Part shown: positions 288 to 17,649 of the stretch, piece after piece
Layout: each line of letters opens with the position of its first letter
Numbering within the stretch: the stretch's first letter is position 1
IMG/VR virus record: IMGVR_UViG_3300045988_168222
Span: 1 to 17,649 of that record
Origin: a virus
Strand: one strand, 5' to 3'
DNA length: 17,649 nucleotides
Program-made: the position numbers and the translations under genes
The notes under the pieces: generated by a model
What the model was told of the DNA's origin: nothing
What the model saw: the letters and a program-made list of their open reading frames with translations, nothing else
The model's database searches: none

Positions 288-521
288 ATGAATTATTACA
301 ATATTGAATTATTAGACACTAAAGACCATGTATTTTTTAGTACTGTTTCATTAGCACCCAACATTACAGATGCAATGGAAAAAGCAAAGTTAAAAGCATA
401 CAATCAAATTGATAAACACAAAATTGTTATCCGTTATGTAACGGTTAAAGATAATGAACAAGAATTTACATACAGTATGCTTACAAAAAGATTATACAAG
501 TTGTATAAGGAGAAAAAATAA
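288..521 (+). CDS. Hypothetical early protein (77 aa)
   Basis: First ORF downstream of the left promoter. Its leader and ATGAAT start are shared with the right-end first ORF. Its stop overlaps the next start (TAATG). Confidence 0.5.
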   Translation: MNYYNIELLDTKDHVFFSTVSLAPNITDAMEKAKLKAYNQIDKHKIVIRYVTVKDNEQEFTYSMLTKRLYKLYKEKK

Positions 522-727
522 TGTCAGACAAAGAAATACTTAAAACAATCCAAAACGATATTAAAAATATTGACAAATGTATTGATATGTGTGATAATTA
601 TGAAGCAGTTGACTACCTCATATCTATTCAAAAAAATCTTAGAGAACAAGAAATTAAAATAGTAAAACAAATGGCTATTAAAAAATCCCTAAAGGAAAAC
701 AAAAATGAACAAACAAAAATTAATTAA
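521..727 (+). CDS. Hypothetical early protein (68 aa)
   Basis: Good RBS (AAGGAGAAAAAATAATG). It is translationally coupled to the upstream ORF. Confidence 0.55.
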   Translation: MSDKEILKTIQNDIKNIDKCIDMCDNYEAVDYLISIQKNLREQEIKIVKQMAIKKSLKENKNEQTKIN

Positions 728-1040
728 TGAAATTGAAAAAGTTAAATTTAAAATACCTAATAATGAATACAAACAAGGTTATAATAATGGTCTTAATAGT
801 GCTATTCTTTGTGTATATGATATGAAAGAACCAATAATTAACAACACAAACACTCCACAACACTATCAAGGAACTATTCAACCTATTGACCTAATCAACG
901 CACAAGACTTAAATTTTAATCTTGGTAACGTTGTCAAATATGTTTGCCGTGCTGGAAAAAAACAAGGTGAAAACATTCTTTCAGACCTTGAAAAAGCAAA
1001 AGATTACATCAACTTTGAAATTGAAAGAGTAAAACAATGA
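705..1040 (+). CDS. Conserved small phage early protein resembling the DUF3310 family, with motifs HY..G.IQPIDLI and GNVVKYVCRAGKK...DLEKAKDYI
   Basis: RBS AAAGGAAAA precedes the start. The motif pattern HY..IEPID / KY..R.G.K / DL.KA..Y is recalled as typical of DUF3310 phage proteins. This rests on memory, not a search. Confidence 0.5.
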   Translation: MNKQKLINEIEKVKFKIPNNEYKQGYNNGLNSAILCVYDMKEPIINNTNTPQHYQGTIQPIDLINAQDLNFNLGNVVKYVCRAGKKQGENILSDLEKAKDYINFEIERVKQ

Positions 1041-1564
1041 ACAAACGCCAACGCAAAAAATTAGCTAAAAAGCAAGCTATTAAAACAGGTGCTTACACTC
1101 CTCGTAACACCTTCCGCTCTACTATGTCAATTAAAACAACACTATTTGACCCGAACCACCCAAAAAATGAAAAAATGATATATCTAGCTGAAAGAAATTT
1201 GAATAGGCTCGCATTCGTTATTACTAAGCCTAATATTGTTAACCTAACAAACCTAACTGAAGACGATGTTAAATATATTCAATCCCCAAAATTTACTCAA
1301 ACAATATCTAATATTCAAGAATACTTTAATTATGACCGTGCTAGATATAGAGACCCTGAGCGGGTTGACAACATTACACGTCACGTCATGACTAAATACT
1401 TTTATCAACGTGATATCGAAAGCACAAGGGCGCTTGATATTGCTATCAAACGACTAACAAAACAACTTGAAAAGATAACTAATAAATACTCAAAAGGTAA
1501 AGATAGACGAGCAACTAACAATCCTTTTGTTATTGTTTACTATAACGACTTGGAGCTAAGATAA
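1037..1564 (+). CDS. Basic 175-aa early protein. Function unknown. Candidate DNA-binding or terminal-protein-like factor.
   Basis: Lys/Arg-rich N-terminus (MNKRQRKKLAKKQAIK). The ATGA overlap with the upstream ORF gives coupling. It is the largest early ORF of unassigned function. Confidence 0.5.
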   Translation: MNKRQRKKLAKKQAIKTGAYTPRNTFRSTMSIKTTLFDPNHPKNEKMIYLAERNLNRLAFVITKPNIVNLTNLTEDDVKYIQSPKFTQTISNIQEYFNYDRARYRDPERVDNITRHVMTKYFYQRDIESTRALDIAIKRLTKQLEKITNKYSKGKDRRATNNPFVIVYYNDLELR

Positions 1565-1716
1565 TGAAATACCTAATAACATATCACACAAAACTAGACA
1601 ACGGCTACATTGATGAACGTCAAATCATTTTAAAAAATAAATATAATGCTAAAAACGTTTATAATAAAATAGCAACCGAAAAACGTACATTAAACATCGA
1701 ACTGGAGGAACTATGA
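1564..1716 (+). CDS. Hypothetical small early protein (50 aa; not in the supplied ORF track)
   Basis: Its ATG overlaps the upstream TAA (TAATG). A GGAG sits 9 nt upstream. Its stop overlaps the next ATG (ATGA at 1713). It fills an otherwise non-coding gap in a tightly packed coupled operon. Confidence 0.4.
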   Translation: MKYLITYHTKLDNGYIDERQIILKNKYNAKNVYNKIATEKRTLNIELEEL

Positions 1717-1898
1717 TTACATTTTATAAACTTACAAGCGTGCTTACTGGTGAAGATTACTATTTTAAACCTGAAACCATTGACTATTATAAGTATACAG
1801 ATACAAGCGTAATGATTATTGCTAAAAATATGCGACTTGAAGTATCAAAATCAGACTTTACAAACATGCTTATTCTAGAAGGGATTGACGAATATTGA
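1713..1898 (+). CDS. Hypothetical early protein (61 aa)
   Basis: RBS GGAGGAA lies 5 nt upstream, with ATGA coupling. Confidence 0.5.
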   Translation: MITFYKLTSVLTGEDYYFKPETIDYYKYTDTSVMIIAKNMRLEVSKSDFTNMLILEGIDEY

Positions 1899-2173
1899 CA
1901 ACAACTAACACAACTTACCGTGTATCAATCAATTACAAAGATAAAATTATCTTACTATCAAAACCTTTAGAAACTTGTGACTATTTTAAAGATAAAACGT
2001 CATTCATTGACGGTACTTATACTATTTTTAATAGACTCGTTGAAATTCACAAAGACCCTACCCAATACCGTGAAAGCCACTACATAAAAAGCTATAAAAT
2101 GGCTAAAATACTATATAACAATTTTAAAAAAACTAAAAAAGATTATTTTTTTTACAACACAATTGAAAATTAG
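1895..2173 (+). CDS. Hypothetical early protein (92 aa), probable TTG start
   Basis: The ORF begins with TTG overlapping the upstream TGA (TTGA). GAAGGGA lies about 10 nt upstream. There is no in-frame ATG nearby. Confidence 0.4.
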   Translation: MTTTNTTYRVSINYKDKIILLSKPLETCDYFKDKTSFIDGTYTIFNRLVEIHKDPTQYRESHYIKSYKMAKILYNNFKKTKKDYFFYNTIEN

Positions 2174-2174
2174 C

Positions 2175-2203
2175 TTGACTTTTAACAAAAACTATTATAT
2201 AAT
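2175..2203 (+). promoter_or_regulatory. Consensus promoter TTGACT-17-TATAAT driving the SSB-like gene
   Basis: TTGACT at 2175-2180, a 17-bp spacer, TATAAT at 2198-2203. The RBS GAAAGGAG follows, and the ATG is at 2233. Confidence 0.7.
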
Positions 2204-2232
2204 TAATTCATAAAACGAAAGGAGCCAAACAC

Positions 2233-2547
2233 ATGGCATTACAATTTAACACAATCGGTTTTATCAACTTTAACAAAGAGTATAATAAAGTACTCAAATC
2301 AGGTGCGATCACAGTATCATTTACATCATCACAAAAAAATAAAGATGGTGAATATGATAAACAATACTTCAATGGTCTAATCCCTGCTAAGCTAGCACAA
2401 CACGTGAAACCATTCTTAAACAAAGAGCTTGTTAAAATTTCTGGCATTGCTTATCCTGCTCAAAAAGGATACATCAACTTTACAATTTTGGAAGTGGAGC
2501 AATATAAAAAAGAAACAAAAACAGATGAAATTAATTTACCATTTTAA
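2233..2547 (+). CDS. Putative single-stranded DNA-binding protein (OB-fold-like, 104 aa)
   Basis: It has its own consensus promoter and a strong terminator, which suggests high expression. It sits immediately upstream of the packaging ATPase and polymerase, as the SSB does in 44AHJD/P68-type genomes. The sequence has SSB-like beta-strand patterning. The assignment is by position and pattern only. Confidence 0.4.
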   Translation: MALQFNTIGFINFNKEYNKVLKSGAITVSFTSSQKNKDGEYDKQYFNGLIPAKLAQHVKPFLNKELVKISGIAYPAQKGYINFTILEVEQYKKETKTDEINLPF

Positions 2548-2559
2548 TAATTAAATGTT

Positions 2560-2585
2560 GGTAGGGAGCACACCCTACCTTTTTA
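2560..2585 (+). terminator. Rho-independent terminator: GGTAGGG-agcaca-CCCTACC followed by TTTTT
   Basis: A perfect 7-bp GC-rich stem followed by a T-run, directly after the SSB-like gene. Readthrough is probably needed for the downstream ATPase and polymerase, because no promoter is seen in 2586-2603. Confidence 0.7.
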
Positions 2586-2603
2586 AATTAGAAAGGAAAC
2601 ACA

Positions 2604-3851
2604 ATGGCAAAAAAGAAAACTTTACCAAAAATACTTAAACAAAAGGCAGTCTCTCTTTTTGCAACTGAAAAAGAAGAATATGCTTACTATTTAAAAGAAT
2701 ATAAAGAAAAATACTTACCCGAAGAATTTAACCAACTTGAATTATTAGACGAGCTTTGTAACGATGACCTTGACCATTACATGAGTATCACGTCTCGTGG
2801 TGACGGTAAATCATTTAACTATATTTCTGCTGTTGGTTATCTTTGCTATCAACTTAATATGGGGTGTACTCTCTTAGTACGTCATTTTACTTTACAAGAT
2901 AAAATGCGTGAACTTGTGGAGGATATTCTACAAACCATTGGCTGGTGCAATTTCTCTACTGACTATCATTATAGGTCTACCTCGGATTATTTAATTATTT
3001 CAATCGGTGACAAAGATGTCTTTTTAATTACTGATATCAATAACGCAAGTGACTTAAAACAGTCTTCAGCAGTACTTAAAAACTTTCCAATTATGTTATA
3101 TGATGAATTTCTAACTCTTCCAGACGATTACTGTAAAAACGAATATGAAAAGATTAGAACTATCTATAAATCAATCGACCGTATTAAGAACCGCCCTTAT
3201 ATCAAAACCCCTAAAATGATATATCTTGCTAACCCAGTAAACTTTGATAGCCCGCTACTTCCATCACTTAAAATCTATAATAAATTACAAACACAAGAAA
3301 TTAATACAATCAAGCAATATGATAACGTCTTATTAGAGTTAAGGCGTAACGACTCACGTAACGATGGAAAAAACTTGCGTGCCTTTCCTGATAATGATGA
3401 TGCGGACGTTACTGGTGAATTTCAATTTTCTAATCATAAGTTAGTGAATGAAGACGTGTATTATAACATTTACAATCACGCAAAATCGGTAAAAGTTAAA
3501 TTAGACAATAAATTAATGTTGCATATCGTTGCAAAAAATGATAATATAGTATTATCAGTTGAGCGAAGTGACAACGATGAACAGTATTGTATCAATTTAC
3601 ATGATGAAACTGAAAAAAGTCAATATTTAAATGACAAATACTATAAACAAAGTTTTATTAAAAAACATGAAAAAGGTATGTTTCTTTACAAGGATAGCTT
3701 TTCTAAAACATACATGGAACGGGATACAATGCTTATGCAATTAAATTTGTTTAAGCTTATACCATCAGCAAAACAAGTCACAACTGAAGAAACATACATT
3801 AAAATTAAGGAAAATAATTTCCTTAAAGCTCTAGCAAAAAAATATGAATAA
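2604..3851 (+). CDS. DNA encapsidation (packaging) ATPase, phi29 gp16-like
   Basis: Walker A ITSRGDGKSF (compare phi29 gp16 GARGIGKS) and Walker B IMLYDEF (compare IVFDEF). RBS GAAAGGAAA precedes the start. It is adjacent to the polymerase, as in C1/44AHJD-type phages. Confidence 0.8.
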   Translation: MAKKKTLPKILKQKAVSLFATEKEEYAYYLKEYKEKYLPEEFNQLELLDELCNDDLDHYMSITSRGDGKSFNYISAVGYLCYQLNMGCTLLVRHFTLQDKMRELVEDILQTIGWCNFSTDYHYRSTSDYLIISIGDKDVFLITDINNASDLKQSSAVLKNFPIMLYDEFLTLPDDYCKNEYEKIRTIYKSIDRIKNRPYIKTPKMIYLANPVNFDSPLLPSLKIYNKLQTQEINTIKQYDNVLLELRRNDSRNDGKNLRAFPDNDDADVTGEFQFSNHKLVNEDVYYNIYNHAKSVKVKLDNKLMLHIVAKNDNIVLSVERSDNDEQYCINLHDETEKSQYLNDKYYKQSFIKKHEKGMFLYKDSFSKTYMERDTMLMQLNLFKLIPSAKQVTTEETYIKIKENNFLKALAKKYE

Positions 3852-3869
3852 TAAAGGGGTCTTAATATC

Positions 3870-6188
3870 ATGCACAATCAAAACGAATTACTTGACTTTT
3901 TAAAAAAGTTTAAAGGTAAAAAAGTCTCGTTATACGCTGATATTGAGACTTTTACTTGCAACAAAATAGAGGGTATGGAACACCCAACAAAATATCACTC
4001 TTTTACGTATTCACTAGCTATTGCTTATTTTAATGATAATGACTTTCCAAAAGTAGCTGTTTTTAATAATTTTTATGATTTCTTTGAAAAAGTTAAAGAA
4101 AGAAAAATCAGAAAATCATTATCTTTTGATTTTGTGTTTCACAATGGTGAAAAATTTGACAACCATTTTTTTATTGAAGAGATGCAAAGTTATTATAATT
4201 TACCAGTCTACACTGAACACAATAAAAGCGCAAACAACACAGCAAATAAAAATGCTAGAAAAATGTCAACTATTGACACCGAAGAGAAAAAACATGGTCT
4301 AGTGTTAGAAAGCAGAGTGAAGTCATCAAATAACGTTAGTGTCAAAGCTTACGTTCATGGTAGACGTGTTGAATTTATTGACTCATTTAAGAAAATGAAT
4401 ACAAGTATAGCTGTTTTAGGTAAAATGCTACTTAATAACAATTTGATAAATGAAGAGTATTTAAAGACTGATTTCGATTATACTTGCTTTGATAAAGATG
4501 AAGATATTGATAGGGAAACAGTTAAAACACATATCAAACGTTGTTTTGAAAGTTTGAATGAAAAACAACTTATCTACATTCGTAATGACGTCATTATTTT
4601 GGCTTTAGGGGTAAAACACTATAAAACGTTATTTTATGGTTTTGACTTTTCAAAAATGACCTTTACTCAAAATATCAAAGAAGAATATTCGAATTATAAT
4701 AAACTTGCTGAATTTCAGTTATTAAAAACAGATGGTCGCTTTTCTCACTTAAAATTAAATGATTACCAAATTTGTGGCATGTCAGGTTTTGACTATTTCC
4801 GTTCATTCTACAAAGGCGGGTTAAATCTTTATAATGATAATTACATAGGTAAAATAATAAATAAAAACGGGTTTTCAATTGACTTAAATAGCTCTTACCC
4901 TACTGTCATGTATAAGGAGAAATTACCCACTTATTTAATAGCCCTAAACGAAAAAAGATCAATTGCAAATTATGATTATAATAACAATGATATCATGTCA
5001 TTTTTCACAATGACAATAGAAAATGCTAATAAGTATATACTTTCTAAAATAGAAAGTAAAGTTTTAAGGAACGCTATTGTAAAATACTATAATTCAAAAG
5101 ATGGGCTTGTATACTATAATACCGTACTATTAAGACTACTATCTAAAATCACTAAACATGATTTCAATTCTATCCCAGTTGAAAGCTCAGCAACTTTTAA
5201 GTGTGAATATTTTGGAGCGCGTGACGTGATAGCTCGTAACTACTTTATTAAAACGCAAGGGAAAATGAAAAATAAGCTAAATTGTGAGATTGATAACATT
5301 GACCCCCTTAACATTGAAATGACTGACGAGCCTAAACCATCTAAGTATAATTTCTCAGACGAAATGGTTCAAGGATCTAAAGTGCTTTTAAATGGTATTT
5401 ATGGGGTTCCTGCTTTACGTATTCATTTTGATATTTTCAAACGTATTGGCGATGACTTTGAAAATGTAAAAAATGGTTTTACTAACAAAGAAAGAAATAT
5501 CGTTTTCTCTGCTGGTGTAACTGCTTTTGCTTTTCATAACCTATTATCACCTCTTCAATACCTAACACCCCAAGAAATTGATAACTATTTTTGGTATGCT
5601 GATACCGATAGCTTATACATGGATAAACGTGCTCTTGATAAATTTCCAAAATACATGTTCCATAAAATGAACCTAGGGGGGTGGGATATTGAACATGAAA
5701 ATATTACAAAATTTTATGCGTTTAATCATAAAAAATATTGTTTATTTGATAACGGTATTGTTGTGCGTTGCGGTGGTGTTTCAAAATCTCTTATTAAAGA
5801 ATGGATAAAACATTCACATGATGACTTTGATTTTTTTGTAAAATGTTATTTTTCAGATGGTACCATCGTACCTGCGACACGTTCCATTAGAAACGAATAT
5901 AACACGATTTCAATTTATAACACTTGTGCCAAACTTGAAAAGGGATACCCCTACTTTGATAGATATATATTGCAAAATGAAAAAGAACTTGATAAAATAA
6001 AATCAAGAATAAGGGAAGAAATTGCTAACCAGTCATCAAATGAACTTTTATACGTTGAAACACCGTATGGCGCTATTGGAACAAACGACGTTATTCCAAA
6101 TCAGGAAATTCCAGAAAATAATAACATTCGTGAACTAATCGAAGAATATAACAAATTTAAAAGACATAACCAAAAGGACTTATTCTAA
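3870..6188 (+). CDS. Protein-primed family B DNA polymerase (772 aa)
   Basis: Exo I YADIETFT, Exo II FHNGEKFDNHFF, Exo III YIRNDVIIL, motif A DLNSSYP, motif B KVLLNGIYG, motif C YADTDSLY and the KKY motif. Long TPR-like insertions are present. RBS AAAGGGG precedes the start. Confidence 0.95.
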   Translation: MHNQNELLDFLKKFKGKKVSLYADIETFTCNKIEGMEHPTKYHSFTYSLAIAYFNDNDFPKVAVFNNFYDFFEKVKERKIRKSLSFDFVFHNGEKFDNHFFIEEMQSYYNLPVYTEHNKSANNTANKNARKMSTIDTEEKKHGLVLESRVKSSNNVSVKAYVHGRRVEFIDSFKKMNTSIAVLGKMLLNNNLINEEYLKTDFDYTCFDKDEDIDRETVKTHIKRCFESLNEKQLIYIRNDVIILALGVKHYKTLFYGFDFSKMTFTQNIKEEYSNYNKLAEFQLLKTDGRFSHLKLNDYQICGMSGFDYFRSFYKGGLNLYNDNYIGKIINKNGFSIDLNSSYPTVMYKEKLPTYLIALNEKRSIANYDYNNNDIMSFFTMTIENANKYILSKIESKVLRNAIVKYYNSKDGLVYYNTVLLRLLSKITKHDFNSIPVESSATFKCEYFGARDVIARNYFIKTQGKMKNKLNCEIDNIDPLNIEMTDEPKPSKYNFSDEMVQGSKVLLNGIYGVPALRIHFDIFKRIGDDFENVKNGFTNKERNIVFSAGVTAFAFHNLLSPLQYLTPQEIDNYFWYADTDSLYMDKRALDKFPKYMFHKMNLGGWDIEHENITKFYAFNHKKYCLFDNGIVVRCGGVSKSLIKEWIKHSHDDFDFFVKCYFSDGTIVPATRSIRNEYNTISIYNTCAKLEKGYPYFDRYILQNEKELDKIKSRIREEIANQSSNELLYVETPYGAIGTNDVIPNQEIPENNNIRELIEEYNKFKRHNQKDLF

Positions 6189-6206
6189 GAACAAGTCCTT
6201 TTTCTC
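6174..6206. terminator. Bidirectional hairpin terminator shared by the convergent polymerase and HNH genes
   Basis: Stem AAGGACT (6174-6180) pairs with AGTCCTT (6194-6200). TTTTCTCG follows on the plus strand and an A-rich stretch precedes it, giving a T-tract on the minus strand. The stems lie inside the last codons of both ORFs. Confidence 0.6.
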
Positions 6207-6536
6207 GTATAATAAATTTGTTGTAAAGTCACACCATTCCAAATTATACCAGGCGTTATTAGTCTTGTCATGGTCTAAGTGGTGAACCGTATTATAATTG
6301 TTAGGGTTAGGTATATACGTTTCTGCCACTAATCTATAGACGTAAACTGTTTTAACATATCCGTTATTACATAGATTAACCCTTTCACGGCCACCCTTAT
6401 CTTTTCTAGCTTTTAAAATTTTACCAGTTTTCTTATTTTTAACAAGTCCACCGTTTTGGATAAGATAATTAGTAAAGTATGGGTGTTCTTTCCATTCAAT
6501 AAATACAGCTTTCAAAACGCTTGACATCTTTCTCAC
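6180..6536 (-). CDS. HNH homing-type endonuclease (NUMOD4 + HNH)
   Basis: NUMOD4-like IEWKEHPYFTNYLIQNGGLVKNKKTGKILK and the HNH motif VHHLDHDKTNNAWYNLEWCDFTTN. No SD sequence precedes either candidate ATG. The ORF overlaps the PlyCB-like ORF by 41 nt and the polymerase 3' end by 9 nt. Confidence 0.85.
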   Translation of the reverse strand: MRKMSSVLKAVFIEWKEHPYFTNYLIQNGGLVKNKKTGKILKARKDKGGRERVNLCNNGYVKTVYVYRLVAETYIPNPNNYNTVHHLDHDKTNNAWYNLEWCDFTTNLLYEKKDLFLE

Positions 6537-7107: not shown

Positions 7108-7135
7108 TTTCTCATAATATTATACCATAAAAAAC
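7108..7135 (-). promoter_or_regulatory. Extended -10 promoter (TGGTATAAT) for the holin-plyCB-HNH cassette
   Basis: Minus-strand TGgTATAAT with the -10 at 7119-7124, about 20 nt upstream of the holin RBS. There is no good -35; the upstream region is T-rich. Confidence 0.5.
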
Positions 7136-7140
7136 TAAAA

Positions 7141-7166
7141 TATAAAAGACGTGTATAACACGTCTA
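7141..7166 (-). terminator. Rho-independent terminator after the PlyCA-like gene
   Basis: Minus-strand hairpin AGACGTGT-tat-ACACGTCT (plus 7147-7165), followed by CTTTTATATTTTAG on the minus strand. Confidence 0.6.
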
Positions 7167-10497: not shown

Positions 10498-10533
10498 ATA
10501 GTATATTATAACACAAAAACACCCGTATTTAAA
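10498..10533 (-). promoter_or_regulatory. Promoter TTTAAA-17-TGtTATAAT, partly inside the upstream terminator
   Basis: Minus-strand -10 TATAAT (plus 10505-10510) preceded by TGT. The -35-like TTTAAA (10528-10533) lies in the loop of the 10511-10541 hairpin. Confidence 0.5.
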
Positions 10534-10541
10534 CGGGTGTT
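10511..10541 (-). terminator. Rho-independent terminator after the fiber gene
   Basis: Minus-strand hairpin AACACCCGT-ttaaat-ACGGGTGTT followed by TTTTGTGT. Confidence 0.65.
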
Positions 10542-14754: not shown

Positions 14755-14787
14755 TTAAATAAAATAAAAGCATGGGCGAACCCATGC
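14755..14787 (-). terminator. Rho-independent terminator after the major capsid gene
   Basis: Minus-strand hairpin GCATGGG-ttcg-CCCATGC followed by TTTTATTTTATTT. No promoter follows, so the connector gene is reached by readthrough. Confidence 0.7.
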
Positions 14788-16439: not shown

Positions 16440-16622
16440 TTAAGAGTTTAGAAGTTTTTCAATTTCGTCAGCTGATTCCACTTTAGATTCTTTTTCTTTT
16501 GGTTTTTCCTCTTTTGGTTGTTCATCGTCTTTTTTTTCTGTTGTAGATTGTTCAACAACTGAAAGACGTGCCATGATTTCATCTAAAGCTGATTTTAGTT
16601 CGTCTTTTGAATTGATTTCCAT
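16440..16622 (-). CDS. Highly acidic 60-aa protein, first gene of the late operon
   Basis: The sequence ...EKKDDEQPKEEKPKEKESKVESADEIEKLL is very Glu/Lys/Asp-rich. RBS GAAAGGAG precedes the start. Confidence 0.45.
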   Translation of the reverse strand: MEINSKDELKSALDEIMARLSVVEQSTTEKKDDEQPKEEKPKEKESKVESADEIEKLLNS

Positions 16623-16728
16623 TTTTAAAAACTCCTTTCTAAAAACATAAAATGTAGCACAATATAATTAATCATACTATCATGTGTTACTTAATTATGT
16701 TTTAATATTGTACTAATTTTATAATCTA

Positions 16729-16757
16729 ATTATAATAAAAAAAGAACCTAAAGTCAA
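16729..16757 (-). promoter_or_regulatory. Late-operon promoter, consensus TTGACT-17-TATAAT on the minus strand
   Basis: -35 TTGACT is the reverse complement of plus 16752-16757. The spacer is 17 nt. -10 TATAAT is the reverse complement of plus 16729-16734. The -35 lies in the loop of the right-early terminator. Confidence 0.65.
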
Positions 16758-16766
16758 TAGGTTCAG
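16733..16766 (-). terminator. Rho-independent terminator of the right early operon
   Basis: Minus-strand hairpin GAACCTA-ttgactt-TAGGTTC followed by TTTTTTTATTATA. Confidence 0.65.
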
Positions 16767-16885
16767 TGGTTAATAATTTTAAGTGTATACTTTTCGCACT
16801 TCATACATTTATATATATTTTTATCTTTTATTTTAAAAATCTCATATACTTTACAAACAGGGCAATAGTGTTGTGTTAATATGTT

Positions 16886-17017
16886 TTATTCCTCCTTATC
16901 CAATAAAATAAAATAAGTTGATATAATTAAGCTAATTGCGAAGAATTGGTAAACTGGTGAAGATGCTGCGATGCAAGCCATAGCGAAAGCTAGTCCGAAT
17001 AGAGTTAGTGTTAACAT
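16886..17017 (-). CDS. Small hydrophobic membrane peptide (43 aa; not in the supplied ORF track)
   Basis: MLTLTLFGLAFAMACIAASSPVYQFFAISLIISTYFILLDKEE gives one or two transmembrane spans. RBS AAGGAGCAAAAACATG precedes the start. Confidence 0.45.
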   Translation of the reverse strand: MLTLTLFGLAFAMACIAASSPVYQFFAISLIISTYFILLDKEE

Positions 17018-17028
17018 GTTTTTGCTCC

Positions 17029-17190
17029 TTATTTGATTAGTGATATTTTGATATTATCTATATGACAGTGTTTGCCTAGATTGTTAACAGTCATCATACA
17101 AGTTTCAAAGTACATGAATTGAGCCTTGACTTTTTCAACACCGTCATTTGTTAATAGGTCATATGTTAGTTGCCATGTTTTATTTTGCAT
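17029..17190 (-). CDS. Hypothetical right-early protein (53 aa; not in the supplied ORF track)
   Basis: RBS AAGGAGTGGAAAGATG precedes the start. The ATG overlaps the upstream TAA (ATGCAAAATAA). Confidence 0.4.
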   Translation of the reverse strand: MQNKTWQLTYDLLTNDGVEKVKAQFMYFETCMMTVNNLGKHCHIDNIKISLIK

Positions 17191-17362
17191 CTTTCCACTC
17201 CTTAAATGTTGATAAAGCTCCGAAAACTACTTTATTATTTAGGTTTACTCTATAAGTACCATTTTCAAATAGTAGTTCCATATACATATCTAGCAATTCA
17301 TCAGGACAAGTGATTACATATGTGTGAATGTCGTTTGGCATATTATATTGTAGTTCATTCAT
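17180..17362 (-). CDS. Hypothetical right-early protein (60 aa)
   Basis: First ORF downstream of the right-end promoter. It shares its leader, RBS and ATGAAT start with the left-end first ORF. Confidence 0.5.
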   Translation of the reverse strand: MNELQYNMPNDIHTYVITCPDELLDMYMELLFENGTYRVNLNNKVVFGALSTFKEWKDAK

Positions 17363-17400
17363 GTTGTTACCAACTTTCTTTATTTCTTATTTACATATAT

Positions 17401-17429
17401 ATTATAGCAAGAGTAGGAAACATAGTCAA
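17401..17429 (-). promoter_or_regulatory. Right early promoter TTGACT-17-TATAAT (minus strand), the ITR-borne twin of 221-249
   Basis: Minus-strand -35 is the reverse complement of plus 17424-17429. -10 is the reverse complement of plus 17401-17406. The operator-like 14-mer at 17432-17445 abuts the -35. Confidence 0.7.
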
Positions 17430-17431
17430 CA

Positions 17432-17445
17432 TGAAAATGTTTTCA
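17432..17445. promoter_or_regulatory. Right-end copy of the operator-like palindrome TGAAAA-TG-TTTTCA
   Basis: Reverse-complement equivalent of 205-218. Confidence 0.5.
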
Positions 17446-17480
17446 GAAAACACTTACATAGATATTTATTTATTAGTTAT

Positions 17481-17498
17481 ATGAAAGCTTGTTTTCAT
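17481..17498. promoter_or_regulatory. Right-end copy of palindrome ATGAAA-gcttgt-TTTCAT
   Basis: Equivalent of 152-169. Confidence 0.4.
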
Positions 17499-17500
17499 TG

Positions 17501-17649
17501 GTGATACATATTAGTTGTAATAAGTCAAGTTGAAAATGTTTTCAGAAAGTGGTTACATTTTATTTGGTGTGCTTGGCACTCAAGTGAGAGAAGTGCTAAG
17601 GAGGGGGGGTGAGGCGAAAAAAAAAAAACGTTATACCAATATTGAATTA
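17501..17649. repeat. Right inverted terminal repeat (perfect part)
   Basis: Reverse complement of nt 1-149. The first mismatch is at the position equivalent to nt 150. Confidence 0.9.
17531..17544. promoter_or_regulatory. Right-end copy of the operator-like palindrome, inside the perfect ITR
   Basis: Equivalent of 106-119. Confidence 0.5.

Follow-up and report, generated by a model that had tools for sequence, protein, structure and literature searches.

A predicted terminator and a predicted promoter share one site ahead of the structural genes of a small podophage

Introduction

How could transcription that enters from the right end of a compact phage genome be kept apart from that of the structural genes when there is almost no intergenic space? 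The question is raised by positions 16729-16766 of the window, i.e., the whole stretch of 17,649 bp that was analysed, where a preliminary description had placed the terminator of the early-right transcripts on top of a late promoter. The window is a complete genome of a small podophage of the protein-primed type, belonging to the Rountreeviridae. The records nearest to it are those of two phages of Streptococcus equinus, pBovineS21 and pBovineB21, with ~82% identity across 55-63% of the genome; phage C1 is a more distant relative, with a capsid protein that is 62% identical. Promoters and terminators are not addressed in the publication on the closest cultured phages, and no description of the junction was found for this group; a literature search for Rountreeviridae transcriptomes returned unrelated papers only.

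Genome organization

The gene blocks and the elements at the right end are arranged as follows.

288-6188, plus strand: small ORFs, encapsidation ATPase and DNA polymerase
17362 to 6180, minus strand: four small right-end ORFs, followed by capsid, collar, adaptor and tail genes, PlyCA, holin, PlyCB and the HNH gene
17357-17649, no strand assigned: right copy of the inverted terminal repeat (~293 bp), with early promoters and TGAAA..TTTCA palindromes inside
17401-17429, minus strand: upstream (early-right) promoter TTGACT-17-TATAAT with a TG-extended -10, identified by promoter scan within the terminal repeat
16763-17362, minus strand: four tightly packed small ORFs of 60 aa, 53 aa, 43 aa and ~38 aa, the last being a zinc-ribbon mini-ORF (CxxC..CxxC) with its stop codon TGA at 16765-16763

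The two terminal repeats (1-293 and 17357-17649) differ by 10 mismatches over 293 bp and are otherwise identical, and the early-right promoter is duplicated without change at 221-249 on the plus strand, ahead of the DNA-polymerase operon. Because the right-end small ORFs would be driven by the same repeat-borne promoter as the DNA-polymerase operon, the label 'early-right', carried over from the preliminary description, appears reasonable.

Overlapping signals at the junction

Scans for promoters and terminators both returned a call at the junction between the right-end ORFs and the structural genes, i.e., an 11/12 promoter and a terminator-like site. Their elements, all on the minus strand, are listed below.

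16765-16763, minus strand: stop codon TGA of the zinc-ribbon mini-ORF, overlapping the foot of the stem
16764-16758, minus strand: hairpin 5' arm GAACCTA
16757-16751, minus strand: hairpin loop TTGACTT
16750-16744, minus strand: hairpin 3' arm TAGGTTC
16744-16764, minus strand: whole terminator hairpin, with a 7-bp stem (3 G-C pairs) and a loop of 7 nt, from scan and folding
16737-16743, minus strand: T7 run, i.e., the terminator U-tract, also promoter spacer positions about -21 to -15
16757-16752, minus strand: -35 element TTGACT in the hairpin loop, followed by the 17-nt spacer
16734-16729, minus strand: -10 element TATAAT, without a TG motif
16729-16757, minus strand: whole late promoter of the sigmaA type, 11/12 in the scan, with a predicted start near 16722

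The hairpin and its U-tract also read as TTGACT-17-TATAAT on the minus strand, as had been pointed out earlier, with every element at its proposed position: the -35 element occupies the loop, the spacer is made up of the 3' arm and the T-run, and the -10 element follows. Hairpin and T-run together (16764-16737) overlap the co-directional promoter (16757-16729), and the right-early terminator and the structural-gene promoter share the same 36 bases. This anatomy supports the further proposal that early-right transcription is predicted to terminate inside the late promoter and in the same orientation, with the 3' end of the early RNA expected at about -21 to -15 of that promoter. The terminator would act in this direction only, as no T-run lies beyond the hairpin on the plus strand.

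With a stability of -7.4 kcal/mol alone and -8.6 kcal/mol in context, the junction hairpin is the least stable of the six sense-strand terminators of the window (the others range from -9.2 to -15.5 kcal/mol), and the 71-nt segment that contains it gives z = -1.78, with 9 of 200 shuffles folding as well, which is marginal relative to chance. The hairpin is nevertheless credible because it lies directly after a stop codon, is followed by the T7 run and is retained in relatives. A stem-loop containing G+C, an adjoining U-tract and a stop codon at the foot, the sequence features of an intrinsic terminator, are all found here, and the site is the sole terminator-like one from the right end to the capsid gene.

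We interpret the junction, with moderate confidence, as a bifunctional terminator-promoter site that is read by the host sigmaA RNA polymerase and punctuates transcription. Transcripts started at the terminal-repeat promoter or promoters (17429-17401) would traverse the four small ORFs and reach a weak, probably partial, intrinsic terminator directly after the last stop codon. The near-consensus promoter embedded in the same 36 bp, with its -35 in the loop and its spacer formed by the 3' arm and the T-run, would then allow a restart near 16722, giving a transcript with a structured leader of ~100 nt that continues into the head, neck and tail genes. In a genome whose genes are packed almost without gaps, the arrangement would serve to keep structural-gene transcription apart from the promoter in the repeat, and the junction would be one of three of its kind on the minus strand.

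Conservation of the promoter

Relatives were gathered in two ways, with the capsid gene as an anchor (L003-L014) and by scanning metagenomes for a 19-mer of the conserved leader (L027, L028, L037 and L038). The metagenome scan gave 17 matches, 12 of which were unrelated sequences, and a scan of viral contigs with the same 19-mer gave no genomes beyond those already in the comparison. Ten distinct homologous sites are defined by the common pattern GAACCTA-TTGACN-17-TATAAT; an eleventh, in L027, does not differ from L038 in its core. A MAFFT alignment of the ten sites misplaced the 3' arms of L007 and L013, and base pairs were judged by folding each sequence separately.

Across the ten sites, the late promoter hexamers and the 17-nt spacing are invariant, and eight sites score 12/12. 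The spacer positions closest to the loop (1-3) vary freely, and in L007 and L013 the loss of 1 nt from the loop is compensated further along the spacer in such a way that the spacing remains 17. Within the window, promoter sites scoring at least 11/12 number six, against 1.3 ± 1.1 expected from 200 dinucleotide shuffles, none of which reaches six. The late promoter has hexamers near TTGACA/TATAAT at 17-nt spacing, exceeds chance expectation and is conserved, as is characteristic of a sigmaA/sigma70-type promoter; to judge from its sequence, it is about as strong as the early promoter. The comparison indicates strong constraint on the late promoter.

Seven more distant relatives (L005, L008-L012, of which L011 is C1, and L014) have no hairpin at the site but do have a strong late promoter, in most cases one with a TG motif. 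At the junction, the longer T7 run takes the place of the TG motif of these hairpin-less relatives.

Conservation of the terminator

Seven of the 10 sites retain AGGTTC, the core of the stem, together with the T-run, and their hairpins have stabilities between -6.2 and -9.5 kcal/mol. Erosion to about -2.5 kcal/mol is seen in L001, L002 and L013, which include both cultured phages; all three have lost one and the same central C-G pair, with the G changed to A, C and T, respectively, and no other terminator was found upstream of the capsid gene. The 5' arm GAACCTA is invariant in the homologous set, the 3' arm is the most variable portion of the site, and there are no compensatory double changes among the ten sites. 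L006 has an unrelated 10-bp stem (AAGGCTTGAC/GTCAAGTCTT) with the -35 buried in its 5' arm, followed by a T-run (T6) and TATAAT, and in L028 a 66-nt insertion parts the module from the stop codon and leaves the module intact. In the seven distant relatives, neither a hairpin, nor a T-run in the spacer, nor any other terminator upstream of the capsid gene was detected.

Spacers with a T-run occur only together with a hairpin, and all relatives without a hairpin lack the run. Since stem and T-run always occur together and the structure has been re-created with other sequence in L006, the hairpin with its U-tract is most simply seen as a selected feature in a sub-lineage. The constraint on the terminator is, by the same comparison, weaker than that on the promoter, and the terminator appears to be dispensable in much of the family.

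The marginal folding, the lowest stability of the window's terminators, the variable 3' arm, the loss of the central pair in three relatives and the lack of a terminator in distant relatives are also what would be expected if the junction were a promoter only, with an inverted repeat and T-run that are incidental or decaying, and with early-right transcription reading through into the structural genes. We consider this quite unlikely, however, as AGGTTC and the T-run are kept in most sites within a spacer that otherwise varies freely, as hairpin and T-run never occur one without the other, as L006 keeps both with a different stem sequence, and as the hairpin begins at the stop codon. The 7-bp inverted repeat that straddles the -35, with its invariant 5' arm, could alternatively be a DNA site for a dimeric repressor of the late promoter rather than an RNA hairpin. 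Here, the distance between the arms, which ranges from 3-4 to 9 nt among relatives, is tolerable for a hairpin but not for fixed half-sites, and L006 conserves the structure with a different sequence; on these two grounds the reading was rejected. Furthermore, it leaves the T-run unexplained, and comparisons with PHROGs and Pfam yielded no DNA-binding protein, which makes an operator highly improbable.

Recurrence of the module

A hairpin, T-run and -10 element follow one another at two further boundaries on the minus strand.

10505-10541, minus strand: second junction, with a hairpin at 10541-10518 (9 bp, -13.6 kcal/mol), a T-run and TGtTATAAT at 10513-10505, before the 583-aa tail gene (start 10483)
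10533-10528, minus strand: TTTAAA at the second junction
7119-7165, minus strand: third junction, with a hairpin at 7165-7147 and TGgTATAAT (7127-7119) 22 nt on, before the holin gene (start 7093)

TATAAT occurs within 25 nt after three of the six sense-strand terminators (binomial p = 0.0008 if the hexamer frequency is taken from the whole genome and 0.02 if it is taken from intergenic sequence). Orthologues of the tail-gene module are present in pBovineS21 and pBovineB21 (L001 and L002), in six viral contigs (L015-L020) and in C1. Their stems are unrelated in sequence (AACACCCGT.., AGCCTGAC.., AGCCCC.., AAGACTAG.. and AACACTAGC..), and all of them are followed by a short T-run and then TGnTATAAT; the boundary before the holin gene behaves in the same way in relatives. 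At one and the same boundary, as at that before the holin gene, the distance from stem to -10 differs between close relatives, with values of 7 to 22 nt. Thus, as far as these comparisons indicate, the adjacency of the module is conserved and its exact nesting is not.

The design had earlier been described as recurring at 10498-10541, with TTTAAA in the terminator loop serving as the -35 of the tail-gene promoter. A terminator-promoter module is indeed present there; TTTAAA as a -35 is doubtful, however, since the slot varies in orthologues. It holds TTTAAA, TTTAAT, CTGACT or TAGCCT in the internal modules, and the invariant part is the TG-extended -10. That the slot falls in the loop follows from plain geometry, because a 3' arm of 6-9 nt and a tail of 7-9 nt add up to about 17 nt. 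The junction at 16729-16766 would accordingly be a special case, in that its loop carries what the comparison marks as a genuine, conserved -35.

Outside the closest relatives, a near-identical arrangement, 'stem-tttttaTGaTATAAT', lies between the terminase and DNA-polymerase genes of Staphylococcus phage Andhra. The Andhra module (L043, 4936-4981, plus strand) has TTTACA in the 3' arm and scores 11/12, and the module of C1 (L044, 11250-11215, minus strand) precedes the tail gene orf12. The same module criteria returned nothing in P68, IME199, Ef6.2, Kurthia P1 and SG005. Two terminators in the window have no promoter following them, one after the capsid gene (14770-14787, minus strand) and one before the encapsidation gene (2560-2579, plus strand); they look like attenuators that would step expression down within an operon.

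The predicted leader of the structural-gene transcript

Downstream of the predicted start, the following features lead into the structural genes.

16623-16722, minus strand: predicted leader of ~100 nt of the structural-gene transcript, nearly identical among 7 phages and strongly structured
16440-16622, minus strand: first gene of the structural module, 60 aa, by homologue annotation; capsid, collar and tail genes come next

The leader folds with -20.1 kcal/mol (z = -3.57), and none of 200 shuffles folds as well. Its long stem begins 2 nt after the predicted start, a position that fits a transcript start near 16722. No covariation is seen in the leader, because its pairs do not vary. Stabilising stem-loops at 5' termini are known in Firmicutes, and the late leader stem resembles these. 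The loop of a second, AU-rich leader hairpin contains the GGAG of the ribosome-binding site.

Discussion

An elongation complex covers roughly 30-35 bp. With the early RNA predicted to end inside the late promoter, and given this footprint, polymerases that terminate or read through at the junction and polymerases that initiate there would be expected to exclude each other. Some interference thus seems inevitable, and we regard it as a side effect of compaction rather than as the reason for the site.

The preliminary description had gone further and proposed a built-in occlusion, in which early transcription ends on the late promoter and blocks it until early activity falls, providing a delay that needs no activator. 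Its geometric part holds, in that mutual exclusion is hard to avoid with both promoters co-directional, whereas its timing part finds no support in the comparison. Speaking for a timer are a late promoter sequence that holds nothing to explain a delay, the lack of any detectable regulator among the small ORFs, the presence of palindromes at the early promoters only, which could allow later shut-off, and the precedent of tufB-secE, where more polymerase on the terminator means less initiation. The hairpin is weak, however, and because it is eroded in 3 of the 10 sites and absent from the seven distant relatives including C1, a timer based on it cannot be essential. The two cultured phages have an eroded stem, yet a normal latent period of 20 min, and the seven distant relatives have no terminator, though co-directional upstream promoters are present. 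In addition, the overlap geometry is not conserved at the internal junctions (7 to 22 nt), a later shut-off of the early promoters would be needed as well, and the small ORFs, most of which have no assigned function, could still include a regulator. We therefore regard the timer as unlikely; its elaborated form, in which the TGAAA..TTTCA palindromes lift the block by silencing the early promoters, without a dedicated factor, and in which the modules of the family are tunable coupling devices, is rather unlikely too.

A terminator-promoter site that punctuates transcription, which we favour, can be set beside several known systems. Work on lambda and gal by Adhya and Gottesman in 1982 reportedly dealt with promoter occlusion, and Palmer et al. 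in 2009 are said to have described the effect of pausing over a downstream promoter. Transcriptional interference has also been addressed in a roadblock study (PMC6593788). In tandem-promoter systems, as at the junction, an upstream co-directional promoter sends polymerases over the downstream one, and pausing or stopping there should increase interference; polymerases in those systems mostly pass or pause at defined sites, whereas at the phage junction termination is expected within the spacer.

In the case of tufB, the terminator extends over the secE-nusG promoter, and secE-nusG expression falls when more polymerases load the terminator (PMC6735719). Interoperon overlaps of terminators and promoters in the Enterobacteriaceae are conserved among relatives, and a link in expression by 'promoter exclusion', with no dedicated factor, has been proposed for them (PMC6735719). 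The tufB-secE pair is the closest precedent for the junction, since in both cases the terminator of one unit and the promoter of the co-directional unit after it share the same DNA. The junction differs from the Enterobacteriaceae overlaps in that it belongs to a phage genome with a Gram-positive host, in that its -35 lies exactly in the loop of a short hairpin, and in that the overlap is less conserved, being eroded or absent in many relatives. Moreover, tufB expression also involves Rho-dependent termination, whereas the phage junction looks purely intrinsic. The compact terminator-promoter arrangement is already known from bacterial operons, and the predicted phage junction is a new instance of it.

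The early/late switch of phi29 involves p4 and p6 and the promoters A2c/A2b versus A3 (review PMC11476376). Like phi29, the present phage is a small protein-primed podophage, predicted to use the host sigmaA polymerase, and its structural genes lie centrally in the genome, between early genes at either end. However, the late promoter of phi29 is without a good -35 and needs p4, whereas the promoter here has a consensus -35, and the junction is not of the phi29-type, p4-dependent kind. PHROGs and Pfam comparisons of 17 proteins, mostly from small ORFs, gave neither a p4-like protein nor another regulator above threshold, in line with the earlier remark that no such activator is evident. The early and late units of phi29 are furthermore divergent or convergent, whereas early-right and late units here are co-directional, head to tail.

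A released polymerase might also be reused. Single-molecule work on post-termination sliding indicates that bacterial RNA polymerase is often retained on DNA after intrinsic termination and can re-initiate close by (Kang et al. 2020, PMC6978380; Harden et al. 2020, PMC6978322), and modelling predicts efficient coupling at short terminator-promoter distances (10.1101/2023.02.10.528045). At the junction, where the terminator is very close to the promoter as in these setups, the polymerase could rebind sigma after releasing the early RNA and re-initiate in place, giving positive coupling, and the tight spacing of stem, T-run and -10 that recurs in several phages would suit such a hand-off. The evidence comes from other systems, however, with E. 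coli polymerase and with terminators and promoters that are separated, rather than from a streptococcal polymerase or an overlap at zero distance, and the terminator is dispensable in many relatives; we consider a hand-off very unlikely.

Under the punctuation reading, the analysis offers a testable transcription map for the poorly studied streptococcal podophages of 16-18 kb (C1-like, with PlyC lysin), in which the structural strand would comprise four units, each bounded by a terminator-plus-promoter module. The natural variants, with an intact stem, one broken pair, a different stem or no stem, form an allelic series with which coupling could be assessed as negative, positive or none. If coupling holds, the 'operon concatenation' idea from bacteria would extend to the timing of phage genes; if there is none, the junction would simply be a case of signal compaction in a very small genome.

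Additional features of the genome

A perfect 7-bp inverted repeat, TTATAAT-TAG-ATTATAA (16717-16735, minus strand), covers the -10 and the stretch up to the predicted start, and 9 of the 10 homologous sites retain both of its arms. A divergent plus-strand promoter within it was considered and dropped, as a reading of the sequence alone gave no acceptable -35 or TG motif. The 66-nt insertion of L028 (1081-1160), identical in L032, is flanked by a 9-bp direct duplication, GAACCTATT, and looks like an insertion or recombination footprint.

The zinc-ribbon mini-ORF (16763-16885, minus strand) encodes ~38 aa with the pattern CxxC-N16-CxxC and is without an ATG, GTG or TTG start; its putative start, ATA or TTA, follows GGAGGA. 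Five relatives (L002, L003, L004, L013 and L028) conserve it at the protein level, whereas it is truncated in pBovineS21 and replaced in L007, and in Pfam it gave only a sub-threshold match to Zn_ribbon_IS1595. None of the four right-end small ORFs could be assigned to a family above threshold. The only small early ORF with an assignable function is one of 111 aa (705-1040, plus strand), which matches phage nucleotide-kinase families (PHROG 236, E = 1.6e-26). An Rfam scan of the whole window gave nothing relevant.

The inverted terminal repeat of ~293 bp is much longer than the 143-bp repeat annotated for C1, and each copy includes the early promoter or promoters as well as the initial two codons of the gene that comes first at that end. 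Each repeat also has three TGAAA-N4-6-TTTCA palindromes, at 17445-17432, about 17497-17482 and about 17544-17531 in the right copy, with mirror copies at 106, 153 and 205 in the left one. They are conserved in L003, L006, L007, L013 and L028. Because two of the three abut an early -35 (TGAAAACATTTTCA-nn-TTGACT) and none is found at the late promoter, differential control of the early promoters through them is plausible. The sequence TTTTCTGAAAA, which overlaps the palindromes, resembles what we take to be a CodY box.

Within the HNH ORF, an 11/12 promoter with a TG motif (ATGACA-17-TATAAT, 6243-6271, minus strand) lies ~35 nt upstream of a 14-bp bidirectional terminator (6172-6202) at the point where the two gene blocks converge. 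It could give rise to an RNA of ~65 nt, and pBovineS21 has a 10/12 equivalent of this promoter.
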